A stretch of DNA of 64,000 nt, taken from positions 64,001-128,000 of the IMG/VR virus record IMGVR_UViG_3300007513_000007. One strand, 5' to 3'. Shown one piece after another: positions 1-14,400 of this stretch. Position 1 is the stretch's first letter; each line of letters opens with the position of its first letter. The notes beneath the pieces are model-generated. The model did not search any database. It saw only the letters and a list, made by a program, of their open reading frames with translations, and was not told the origin of the DNA. The stretch is from a virus. Both the position numbers and the translations under genes were made by a program.

Positions 1-742
1 TAGTTGCAGGCACGGAACCCACACTCCCCATCAATGGCCTTGCGGCTCTTGCCCGAAGCATCGAACAGGGCACGCAGTTCCTTCTTCAAGGTCACGATGG
101 AGGTGTTTACTCGTCCAGCCTGCTTGTCCAAAGTCTTTCCGATGTTGAGGCTCTTCGGGAACCCGCTTCCATACACCCAGGCTTCGAGTTTGATGTCCGT
201 GAATCCGACTTTCTCCAGTGCTGCGGCCAGCCTGTGGAAAGTCCGCGTCCCACTGAACGCTTTGATGACCCCACCTGATTCAAGTACCCGGTAGGCTTCC
301 TGCAACCATTGGAGGTGCCATGCTTCCATAGCTTCCAGGTGGTTCCCCATACCTCCCCCGGTCTGGTCATCTGGAAGACCCTCGTTCTCCGCGTTTCGGC
401 GCTTACCCATTGGTTTCCAATGGTCGTGGGGTTGGGGGCAGTGGCATTTCTTTGCACCGCGCAACCGGCCCCCGCACTCCGCACAAGTCGGATTGGTGGT
501 TCCGTGCTTGGAGGTGCTGGAGAAGCTGGGCCACTTGATATGCCGTTCACCGATTCCAGGACTGGTGAAGGTGCCGCCATGCTCGTAGGACTTACCGCTC
601 CCGATCTTGTCCCATTCTTTTCCCATGAACTCAAGGCCATTCAGCCGTAGGGAGGGTCACAAATGACGCTCCCTACGCTGCCCTCCTGGAGTTCGGCCAT
701 GCGGTTTACGCACTCGCCATGTTTCAGGACAATCTCACTCAT
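1..742 (-). CDS. N6/N4 DNA methyltransferase, catalytic (DPPY) half; frame broken after DPPYG; runs off window edge
   Basis: ATG at 742 overlaps the SET stop: MSEIVLKHGEC...VICDPPYG then TGA (643-641). A second frame from 638 reads GLEFMGKEWD...EAYRVLESGG...FSGTRTFHRLAAALEKVGF...WVYGSGFPKSLNIGKTLDK with no stop to position 1. Confidence 0.85.
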
Positions 743-1580
743 CCTCTTCCTCCCTTTGCTGCATCTCCTCTTGGAGTTGCATCCACTTCTGTGCAGACAG
801 AAGCAGTTCCTCGTCCGGTAGCGTGGACGGGTTCGCTGGGGCCTCCCCCATCGCCACGCATCCTGCCTCATGTTCGTCCATGATGGTTACCAGCTTGGCT
901 ATGGAGGAGGCATCTCGGAGAGGTCTCTCCAGCGGCTCTTCTTTCCGAGGCTCGAACCAAAGCTGGTCGCCATAGTTCATGAGAAACTCGTCACCTTTGT
1001 GGATGTCCCTCCAAGCAGTGAAATCCAGGAACCTGCGCTGTGTTTTGGGGCAAACGTAGGCGAGCGCAATCGTGTTCCAGTTCTCCTCGGAATGGTTGTA
1101 GAGCATCCCGTACCCCAGTGCGAGGCACTTTACCGGGTCCCTTCTCCAAGGAATGACCATATGCGCCATCAAGGTGAGCTTCGCCATAGACTGGGGGGAG
1201 TCCCTTTGATCTAATGGGCCGGGTGCATACGGTTCCGTGACCACCGACAGGATGGCCTTGTCGGACGTGTAGTTGGTCATGTCTACCGTGTTGTGGGCGA
1301 GTCCGTGCCGCACACTCCCCGCGTTAGTGCAGATGACAAAAACGGGACACCTCTCCACCAATGTCCCTGCCGGTATGTCTTCTCGGGCGTAGATCCCTAT
1401 CCCGGCAGTGCCCTGCCTCATCTCAATCAGGGGGCCGGGTGCTGGCGCTATGTCCGTATGCCCCCACAACGTGCCGCACTGCTTACACTTCCGATAGTTC
1501 TTCGAGCGCCATTGAAAACCGCATGATTGACAAGTAAAGGTGAGGTGTCGAAGGGTTTTCTCGCCCATCACTCCCCCCAC
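735..1580 (-). CDS. SET-domain protein (putative lysine methyltransferase) with N-terminal CxxC..CxxC zinc ribbon
   Basis: GIGIYAREDIPAG, LGYGMLYNHS, AWRDIHKGDEFLMNYG. Confidence 0.85.
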   Translation of the reverse strand: MGGVMGEKTLRHLTFTCQSCGFQWRSKNYRKCKQCGTLWGHTDIAPAPGPLIEMRQGTAGIGIYAREDIPAGTLVERCPVFVICTNAGSVRHGLAHNTVDMTNYTSDKAILSVVTEPYAPGPLDQRDSPQSMAKLTLMAHMVIPWRRDPVKCLALGYGMLYNHSEENWNTIALAYVCPKTQRRFLDFTAWRDIHKGDEFLMNYGDQLWFEPRKEEPLERPLRDASSIAKLVTIMDEHEAGCVAMGEAPANPSTLPDEELLLSAQKWMQLQEEMQQREEEDE

Positions 1581-3007
1581 CCGAAGAAATCATCAAGGCT
1601 CTGTTCTTCCTGCTCTACCTTGGGGGCTTCCGACTCGATTGACGCACGATTCCAGCCCTGGTTCTCTGCGTTCCAGTGCCTTACACGGGCATCCGCAATC
1701 TGGATGTACTCTTCTTCCCGCTCAATGCCGATCCCAGAGTGTCCGGTTTTTGTACAGGCGATCATGGTCGTGCCGGAACCAAGAAAAGGGTCCACCACAA
1801 GCCCCTCTTTAGGCACTGTCTCAAGGAGTCTTCGCATCACCTCTACGGGCTTCACCGTCGGATGGGAGTTGTGCCGCTTCTGAACCCCTCGGTTTCGAGG
1901 ATTGTCACCACCCGGATTGCCTTCCTTTCGTCCGTCGTCCCTTTGTGCTGCCTCGATAGAAGCGCACCCTGCTTCTCGTTCGGCTCTCGAAGGCTTGGCG
2001 ACGTAGTGTAGGCGGTCTTCTGGGCTGTCTGCGACAAGGATGCAGTCCCGTACTTCAAAGCCTGCATCCTCCCCGGCACAAGCACCCTTGAACCCCGTAT
2101 CTTCGGATGCCAGAAGCAAGTGCCCTCCTGGCTTCATGACCCGGAGGGCCTCCCCGATCCAATCCCCAACAGCATTGTCTGATTCAGTGAGGATGGCATG
2201 TACCGTGCCGTCTTCGTGCTTGGCCCAGTCGAAATCCGAGGGGTTGGCAATAACAAGGGTGTTGCAGTCATCCAGGTGGTCAGGGGAGACCATCGTCTGA
2301 AGGTATTCTCGGAGTTCTTTGGGGAGCATGAAGTTCTTTACCCGTCCTGAAGGTTGTTTGACCCTCTCCTGGGGGAACTGGTGAAAGAATCGGGCAGCAC
2401 CCCCGGCATCTGCAAACCCCCGTTCAGTTGTGTCCGTGACGGAGTTGGGGTTCCACACCATCGATCCACCCCCTGTCGGATAGATGGGGTTGCCGGTGGG
2501 CTTGCGTACCACCCCTTTAGTGACTCCGCTCTGTTCATCGAGGTCGGCCACAAGGCACCCATCGACACACTCCCAAGCGGGGATCGTTTCGTTTCCGTCC
2601 GGGTCTGTTGCAGGGGACTCCCACGCATCTGGTCGGACATCTTTGCTGCGGCGTGCGCCCCAACCGTGGCGGGGATCTGGCTTTCCCTTTGGGCCGTTGG
2701 GATACCCTTGATGACCCTTCACCTTACGCACGCCGAGGTGCTCGCATCCAGGTTGGTGCTGAAGCACCAAGTTCCCCGGCCAACGGCCAAGAACCTGTCC
2801 GTCCTTCTGGTGGGTGGCGGTTGACCCATAAGCCCCGAAGATACCGTTCCCTTTGGCTGCTTCAGCAGGCTTCGAGTGGGTACTGACCACTTCGCCGTGG
2901 GCTGCTACACGGCATCGGTCGATATTGAGGCCGCCTGTTCCATGATTCAGGGCACATGCAGCAACCGTAGACCCCAGAGGTTTACGGAGAAGGTGGACGG
3001 TTTTCAT
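1568..3007 (-). CDS. Permuted DNA methyltransferase-like protein (SAM-binding motif I present, DPPY absent)
   Basis: RKPL..TVA..HGTGGLNID, GRWPGN, GGAARFF, YVAKPSRAER, HPTVKPVEVMRRL, VVDPFLGSGTT. Confidence 0.85.
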   Translation of the reverse strand: MKTVHLLRKPLGSTVAACALNHGTGGLNIDRCRVAAHGEVVSTHSKPAEAAKGNGIFGAYGSTATHQKDGQVLGRWPGNLVLQHQPGCEHLGVRKVKGHQGYPNGPKGKPDPRHGWGARRSKDVRPDAWESPATDPDGNETIPAWECVDGCLVADLDEQSGVTKGVVRKPTGNPIYPTGGGSMVWNPNSVTDTTERGFADAGGAARFFHQFPQERVKQPSGRVKNFMLPKELREYLQTMVSPDHLDDCNTLVIANPSDFDWAKHEDGTVHAILTESDNAVGDWIGEALRVMKPGGHLLLASEDTGFKGACAGEDAGFEVRDCILVADSPEDRLHYVAKPSRAEREAGCASIEAAQRDDGRKEGNPGGDNPRNRGVQKRHNSHPTVKPVEVMRRLLETVPKEGLVVDPFLGSGTTMIACTKTGHSGIGIEREEEYIQIADARVRHWNAENQGWNRASIESEAPKVEQEEQSLDDFFGWGE

Positions 3008-14322: not shown

Positions 14323-14400
14323 TGGCTGGGGCGGTTGGACTCGAACCAACAATCTCCGGGGTAACAACCCGGCGTCCTTGCCTATTAGGACCTCACCCCA
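14323..14400 (-). tRNA. tRNA-Asn (GTT)
   Basis: TGGGGTG/CGCCCCA acceptor, GTCC/GGAC D-stem, CCGGG-TTGTTAC-CCCGG anticodon arm, GTTGG-TTCGAGT-CCAAC T-arm, encoded GCCA end. Confidence 0.95.

Follow-up and report, generated by a model that had tools for sequence, protein, structure and literature searches.

The stretch of DNA analysed here (64,000 nucleotides; the window) comprises bases 64001-128000 of a 180.6-kb IMG/VR virus contig (57.6% GC), which is a fragment of a marine jumbo phage. At the beginning of the window the minus strand carries a DNA methylase gene that is interrupted at its catalytic DPPY motif. The first part of this gene is a mini-ORF of 33 codons, ORF1 (644-742, minus strand), which runs from ATG 742 to GGC 644 and reads M-S-E-I-V-L-K-H-G-E-C at its beginning and C-D-P-P-Y-G at its end. 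The start of ORF1 overlaps the end of a SET-domain gene and has a Shine-Dalgarno (SD)-like GGAGG sequence 6 nt upstream. ORF1 supplies the methylase with its N-terminal strand and with catalytic motif IV (DPPY), and is homologous to the N-termini of intact relatives.

On the minus strand the order of the junction is TAC (649-647, the end of DPPY), GGC (646-644, Gly33), TGA (643-641), AT (640-639) and GGC (638-636), followed by CTT GAG TTC ATG GGA AAA GAA TGG GAC (ATG at 626-624), which encodes LEFMGKEWD. This is exactly the sequence given in the preliminary description. Between the stop and the second GGC there is no other GG, and this codon belongs to the downstream frame. That frame, ORF2 (1-635, minus strand), begins L-E-F-M-G-K-E-W-D and was correctly described as having no stop before position 1; indeed, it is open past the edge of the window for a further 351 nt (L001:1149-2138) and ends ...ALKPSWEPVLVGTKP... 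(...VGTKP...). Counted from the second Gly codon the downstream frame has 329 codons (328 after it). A different ORF of 177 codons (107-640, minus strand) starts at the ATG directly 3' of the TGA, in the frame of ORF1; at the same place relatives have ATG, CTG or TTG, and it is probably a chance ORF arising from the GC richness.

ORF2 is 49% identical to residues 39-341 of a single-chain methylase, P0032 (552 aa). It corresponds to the catalytic N-half of a beta-class N6/N4 methylase without motif I, and its Pfam match (PF01555) scores 23.9 bits against a cut-off of 26.7. The motif IV pattern (D/N/S)PP(Y/F/W) is found as DPPY at 658-647, in ORF1. The SAM-binding motif I (FxGxG) is not in the chain of the interrupted gene and is instead carried by a separate gene of 479 aa (1568-3007, minus strand; PF01555, E 5e-20), which contains GTGGLNID, HPTVKP and DPFLGSGTT, the SAM-binding motif I, and has no DPPY. 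The 479-aa protein aligns to P0032 residues 335-393 and 439-537, and these alignments indicate that the enzyme has been split into two genes in permuted order. The SET-domain gene (1580-735, minus strand) lies between them, in translational overlap at either end. No methylase-type DPPY other than that of the interrupted gene is present on the contig, and the two chains may be active together as a two-chain enzyme. The preliminary description had overlooked that only the catalytic half is encoded.

Several further features of these methylase loci were observed. The 479-aa gene (3007-1568) consists of a TRD-like and SAM-binding half together with a degenerate copy of the N-half, in which IANPSDFDW stands in place of DPPY. 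A second methylase paralog adjoins 32 of 57 interrupted loci and 28 of 98 intact loci. The intact relative P0002 (L087:3001-4449) has an intein inserted in YG|SGFPKS, the methylase paralog upstream in L082 (L082:935-2875) contains a Hint plus LAGLIDADG intein, and an intein interrupts the thymidine kinase gene on the P0022 contig.

In about 100 intact relatives the spacing from TAY to ATG is exactly 12 nt, reading DPPY-GLEF-MGKEWD, which means that the window carries 8 extra nucleotides. Comparison with these intact genes shows that a skip between the two GGC codons restores the family consensus exactly, in agreement with the methylase pattern proposed for the skip product. The sequencing data over 630-660, a check that had been recommended, contain the 8 nt: contigs of four marine runs span this region with zero indels. 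Among the four runs is a variant strain with 16 substitutions at 492-600, of which 10 fall on third positions of the downstream frame. Because no indel is seen in any of the four runs the 8-nt insert is real DNA, and both an assembly error and a 1-nt deletion, which had been raised as alternatives, are refuted.

Database proteins that begin MGK(E/K/S)WD or have out-of-frame N-termini (P0003, P0009, P0017, P0022) were traced to their DNA, and this protein-led search was followed by two pattern scans of DNA. Interrupted genes of this kind were found at about 100 phage loci, with 60 distinct interrupted junctions; most of the junctions were found by a pattern that forced GLEF downstream, and the collection carries this ascertainment bias. 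In the prevailing layout DPPY is followed by a single Gly codon, a stop, a spacer and a further Gly codon, after which comes (L/Y/I)-x-F-MGK. The insert totals 5-24 nt, occurs in all three frames and is found with TGA, TAG and TAA (23, 12 and 4, respectively, among 39 distinct junctions). GGC-TGA-(A/C/T)T-GGC is the commonest junction type in the comparison with related phages that had been called for, the first spacer base being A, C or T among relatives of the window type; the closest relative of the window, L090, reads GGT-TGA-AT-GGC.

The stop lies directly 3' of the single codon after DPPY in 52 of the 53 class-I junctions. Moreover, the first dinucleotide after the stop that matches the first codon is in the downstream frame in 51 of 53 distinct junctions, and the same rule held in all five junctions from a pattern with no specified second Gly codon. 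The spacers after the stop contain only 3 G in 186 nt (1.6%), compared with 32% G in the adjacent coding sequence (p 1.6e-26), so almost nothing there could capture a Gly anticodon before the second codon is reached. From that codon to the conserved Met, G-h-x-F is kept with synonymous changes, also in loci found without forcing, and the F codon before the ATG is conserved in all interrupted loci. L202 has the same layout with GAG...GAG, and the intact form of its subfamily has Glu at this position. The wobble bases of the two codons differ in about one-third of junctions (GGA to GGC, GGT to GGA, for example), and re-pairing there would rest on two of three bases.

A second class of junction has the stop directly after Tyr and 0-2 further bases before the Gly codon (3-5 nt in all), with no matched codon pair and no helix of the kind described below (L086, L132, L147, L165, L180, L199, L201, L221 and L120). 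Expression of these genes may involve a +1 shift or readthrough, or the genes may be genuinely defective. In addition, long gaps of 14 nt (L096, L097, L111, L117, L130, L139, L141, L153, L202), 12 nt (L085, L100) and 16 nt (L115) were observed, which have no upstream helix and nearly all of which have TAYC a few bases before the second Gly codon. The TAYC may represent either a degenerate TAY-GG copied from the first codon or a separate signal.

Immediately 5' of the junction the mRNA can form a 13-bp helix (647-676, minus strand; 5' arm 676-664, loop 663-660, 3' arm 659-647), which had been missed in the preliminary description. The helix covers the codons for V-G-S-V-I-C-D-P-P-Y; its last base is the last base of TAC, and the first GGC follows directly 3'. 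The minimum free energy is -17.7 kcal/mol, compared with a mean of -7.8 for synonymous recodings (z -3.3; 1 in 300 as stable), and in relatives the z-score against synonymous recodings reaches -4.7. In the register of the helix, 12-13 of 13 pairs can form in the short-gap class, compared with 3-10 (mode 7) in 103 intact genes. Over 23 distinct sequences, 93% of cells are paired, against 41-58% after sliding of the partners. Covariation without any unpaired cell is seen at two stem positions (AU14/GC5/GU2/CG1/UA1 and GC10/AU9/GU4), and none of 500 shuffles equalled the covariation score. The excess of G.U (18) over A.C (3) in the helix points to the sense RNA. In a phylogenetically separate clade (L174, L216, L186 and L148) the helix has another sequence and ends at the same 3' position; the Tyr wobble base takes part in one exchange there, of A-U to G-C. 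The genes that carry the helix have gaps of 5, 6, 7, 8 and 10 nt.

Folding of the 76-nt junction region as a whole gave a z-score of -5.2. Most relatives have a short extension of the helix that would pair the first Gly codon, with no covariation; C677 can pair with one G of this codon in 23 of 23 relatives. By contrast to the helix, the 4-bp GGCU/GGCC hairpin that had been suggested as a signal can form in the window and weakens to G.U pairs in relatives, and is not conserved. Structure 3' of the junction did not exceed chance (mean z -0.5), neither an intrinsic terminator nor a promoter was predicted at the helix, and a search of Rfam found no known RNA family at the junction at E values up to 1. 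The window's own fold has in addition an outer helix, GAACUC with GAGUUC (689-694 with 627-632) and AGG with CCU (685-687 with 634-636), that encloses the SD-like element, the helix, the gap and the second Gly codon; L082 has no 5' partner for it. At L098:480-700 (minus strand) the SD-like element, the helix and an 8-nt gap are all intact in front of a downstream ORF of only 25 codons, in which MGKKWD is joined directly to GWGTALKPSWEPVVVGRKP; this locus is an internal-deletion derivative that retains the device. A scan of prokaryote genomes for the helix followed by Gly and a stop gave no matches.

The SD-like element AGGAGG (682-687, minus strand) lies 5 nt 5' of the helix, and had likewise escaped notice. 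A GGAGG or AGGAG pentamer 6 or 9 nt 5' of the helix position is present in 23 of 23 helix-class sequences, compared with 6 of 103 intact genes and none of 37 other interrupted genes. This distribution suggests that the element may have a role at the junction.

Comparison of the window's gene with other interrupted genes gave dN/dS values of 0.05-0.26 at dS of at least 1.3 (median over pairs, 0.20). With dS saturated, such ratios indicate that the interrupted gene is not a pseudogene, as had been considered. The mini-ORF is also constrained among interrupted genes (pN 0.23, pS 0.55) and has a start codon in every locus, and the downstream frames are open for 150-617 codons. As judged from these values, both ORFs have been under purifying selection over deep divergence. 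A quick maximum-likelihood tree search, the only type of tree search used, grouped 36 interrupted and 4 intact genes in a clade with 99% SH-aLRT support, the window falling in a 9-row subclade made up exclusively of short-gap genes. Over 2.4 kb that run right across the junction, L082 (8-nt gap) and L087 (intact) share 92% identity, which indicates that gaps are occasionally gained or lost.

The features of the junction match those of T4 gene 60, and on this ground the window is read as a programmed 8-nt hop. The preliminary description had proposed a ribosomal stop-hop from GGC to GGC, and after the comparative tests this is the best-supported explanation: we consider it probable that programmed translational bypassing, in the form of a short stop-hop, joins the 33-codon ORF to the 328-codon ORF to give a methylase catalytic half of about 361 aa. 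The gap is flanked by a codon pair for the same peptidyl-tRNA (GGC/GGC), which would serve as take-off (644-646) and landing (636-638) codons; the stop (641-643) would occupy the A site while the take-off GGC is in the P site; and the covarying 13-bp helix, specific to interrupted genes, would supply a cis-acting mRNA structure. The further suggestion of a low-efficiency switch that throttles methylase output is not supported. The stop, the AT spacer (639-640) and the landing codon together make up the 8 nt.

In the proposed mechanism ribosomes would initiate on ATG 742 and unwind the helix (676-647). When peptidyl-tRNA-Gly arrives on GGC 646-644 with UGA in the A site, termination would be slow. 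The mRNA behind the ribosome would begin to re-pair, the tRNA would leave its GGC, and the mRNA would slide by 8 nt through the G-free spacer until the anticodon re-pairs with the first GG that it meets, GGC 638-636. Decoding would then resume from CTT 635-633 to give ...CDPPYG-LEFMGKEWD.... The helix may thus stimulate bypass, as a forward driver or as a backstop as in gene 60. After a slide of 8 nt only the apical part of the helix can re-form outside the ribosome, so its role is not self-evident. The contig encodes no tRNA-Gly; its sole tRNA gene over 180 kb is a tRNA-Asn (GTT) at 14323-14400 of the window. That ribosomes really hop here is what the conserved geometry suggests. The wobble mismatches in part of the family, and the minority class with the stop after Tyr, which does not fit the hop, make this picture incomplete.

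The same arrangement could be read as termination followed by reinitiation. Either the terminating ribosome or a new one, held by the SD-like element, which the folded helix brings close, would restart at a CTG overlapping the stop or at ATG 626, and a 33-aa peptide and a protein of 325-329 aa would assemble non-covalently. An SD-like element and a helix just before the junction do resemble an initiation region, and in some initiation regions a hairpin shortens the distance from SD to start. A downstream-frame start overlaps the stop in the window (CTG) and in L090 (TTG), and a further split is conceivable in an enzyme that is already in two genes. However, only 3 of 22 helix-class and 8 of 29 other junctions offer a canonical downstream-frame start ahead of the landing codon, and in 19 of 51 class-I junctions even a near-cognate start is absent. 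The range of gap lengths among the helix genes (5, 6, 7, 8 and 10 nt) means that there is no fixed start position in the frame, the G-h-x-F codons before the Met are kept with synonymous changes, and the G-free spacers and the duplicated Gly codon would be left unexplained. We regard reinitiation as unlikely, while ranking it first among the competing explanations.

Slightly less likely again is that the insert is an untranslated scar at the DNA level, which for example destroys the target of a homing endonuclease. The protein would then start at ATG 626 and be a non-catalytic subunit without DPPY, and ORF1 would be a leftover or have a separate role. Gene callers do begin the protein at MGKEWD (P0001, P0003, P0009), a probable Vsr-like nuclease gene adjoins relatives with long gaps, and the mini-ORF and gap have been swapped as a module between L082 and L085 (see below). 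Against this, the mini-ORF stays open with pN below pS through deep divergence, the F codon before the ATG is conserved in every interrupted locus, and the interrupted gene holds the contig's only methylase-type DPPY; moreover, no purpose would be left for the helix, the SD-like element, the adjacent stop or the G-free spacer.

Loss of the 8 nt from the RNA, through polymerase realignment driven by a nascent hairpin or through cutting and rejoining, would leave a continuous mature mRNA. A strong hairpin does lie just upstream, and the repeated GGC could conceivably let the 3' end of the RNA realign. However, such a process would need no in-frame stop directly after the take-off codon, yet 52 of 53 junctions have one, and the wobble mismatches suit a P-site tRNA better than the 3' end of an RNA:DNA hybrid. 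We also know of no precedent for the removal of 5-24 nt from a phage mRNA, and consider this explanation improbable. Finally, a dead gene or a sequence artefact, although the usual meaning of a frame-breaking 8-nt insert, is scarcely credible here in view of the agreement of four runs, dN/dS of 0.05-0.26 with saturated dS and the occurrence of the device in about 100 loci.

Other recoding events were rejected. A -1 frameshift on the Pro codons would give DPP-L..., with loss of the catalytic Tyr, and could not serve in-frame or +1 gaps. For programmed -1 or +1 frameshifting in general, the window has no X-XXY-YYZ site and relatives need shifts of 5-24 nt in all three frames. If TGA were reassigned or read through, the 8-nt gap would still change the frame, and translation table 11 leaves long ORFs open (up to 1989 aa). 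The occurrence of gaps in all three frames means that neither single-base frameshifting nor stop reassignment can serve the family.

To our knowledge, bypassing in bacteria and phages is known essentially from one cassette, that of T4 gene 60. Take-off in gene 60 occurs from a Gly codon while a stop occupies the A site, the landing codon is a matching Gly codon, and the upstream mRNA re-folds on leaving the ribosome and blocks backward sliding (PMC7026636; preprint 10.1101/2024.12.09.627546). In the gene 60/MobA cassette the gap shields the site from a nuclease (bioRxiv 10.1101/2022.08.31.505936). The present family has in common with T4 gene 60/MobA the Gly take-off codon, the immediate stop, the matching Gly landing codon and upstream mRNA pairing, as well as an SD-like element, a phage host gene and an exchanged module that ends at the landing codon. 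A free-standing homing endonuclease occurs in relatives of both systems, and is of VSR type in some gene 60-like cassettes. The differences are equally clear. The gap is 8 nt here (5-24 nt in the family) and 50 nt in gene 60, and the host genes, a DNA methylase and a topoisomerase subunit, are unrelated. Unlike in gene 60, the helix here abuts the take-off codon and lies inside conserved coding sequence, and the SD-like element is 5' of the helix rather than 6 nt before the landing site. A nascent-peptide signal is a feature of gene 60; in the present family, which is known from sequence alone, the conservation of the mini-ORF peptide is explained by its role in the enzyme. The window junction would thus work like gene 60 while standing outside its MobA cassette family (NTE, CTE).

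Short hops over a stop between matched codons were also obtained by Weiss et al. (1987) in E. coli, as reported in PMC5009743, where they are synthetic, engineered and low-level; here, by contrast, there is a natural, conserved family with putative dedicated stimulators. According to the same source, no natural in-frame stop-hopping is known, and shorter natural counterparts of gene 60 have long been expected and not found (PMC5009743). In Streptomyces phage Hau3, the terminase gene is a candidate short bypass with sequence support only (PMC5009743, PMC10732093). Like the present family, it is a phage gene with a short gap in its coding sequence and with matched codons, and an SD sequence 5' of the gap has been proposed to play a part, but its take-off codon is a rare UUA rather than a stop-flanked Gly codon, no covarying helix has been described for it and there are far fewer cases. 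The byps of Magnusiomyces capitatus mitochondria are 27-55 nt long and occupy many sites in many genes (PMC5009743). There, the A site of the mitochondrial ribosome holds an unused codon and not a stop, whereas here a single site in one gene family is affected. No account of a gap at the DPPY site turned up in full-text literature searches. The prfB (RF2) gene, which is decoded with a +1 frameshift by a single-nucleotide slip on CUU-U, resembles the window in having an in-frame stop in the A site and an upstream SD-like stimulator; the shifts here, in contrast, are of 5-24 nt with no slippery sequence.

The origin of the gaps may be connected with a nuclease. L124 has about 900 extra nucleotides just upstream of the mini-ORF, which encode on the opposite strand a 279-aa protein with zinc ribbons. 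This protein gave weak matches to Vsr (E 0.002), REase_MTES_1575 (E 5e-4), NUMOD3 and a PDB 'mobile intron protein', all below curated cut-offs. Sequence searches of PDB and NCBIfam with it gave nothing significant, and a single-sequence AlphaFold model had a pLDDT of 48, too low for use. We take it to be a probable Vsr-like homing endonuclease, not one of HNH type. At 9 of 20 long-gap, 0 of 18 helix-class and 2 of 118 intact loci a homologue is situated about 125 nt upstream of the junction. In L100 the opening ∼ 17 codons of the 12-nt-class mini-ORF (MSKGDSVRRAVQTLRLR) are present in two copies, at L100:1946-2000 and L100:2881-2935, on either side of the nuclease-like gene (279 aa, L100:2030-2869), which looks like an insertion duplication or a homology arm. 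A plus-strand ORF of 312 aa beside the 12-nt-class genes was discarded as a wrong-frame artefact, and crude ORF clustering revealed no HNH family enriched beside interrupted genes. Over 4 kb L082 and L085 share 98.9% identity, with no difference at all once the landing codon is reached, yet their mini-ORFs and gaps are not the same.

Because longer-gap relatives carry the probable Vsr-like nuclease gene, the gaps are likely to have arisen as inserts that disrupt a homing-endonuclease target site, and the window's own gap may descend from such a nuclease-linked insert. No Vsr-like nuclease gene was found beside the window's gene or on its contig, nor did Pfam identify a nuclease among the window's neighbours. 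The lineage of the window has a streamlined short gap with putative cis stimulators and no nuclease gene.

Overall, we are evenly divided on the wider proposition that these genes form a natural short-hop family, the first outside the gene 60 cassette, with one form that has 12-16-nt gaps and a Vsr-like homing endonuclease and a nuclease-free form that has 5-10-nt gaps and stimulators of its own (the SD-like element, the helix abutting the take-off codon and the G-free spacer). Gene callers systematically misannotate such methylases as N-terminally truncated and lacking the catalytic motif. The family provides dozens of natural variants in gap length, frame, stop and codon pair, with a covarying helix, and these form a ready mutational series for codon release and re-landing by ribosomes. 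If the proposition is true, it would define a minimal and portable bypass cassette of about 60 nt. The nuclease link in relatives bears on how immunity inserts evolve in highly conserved coding DNA, and the family, again if the proposition is true, would show an insert that conferred immunity to a selfish element turning into a streamlined recoding device.
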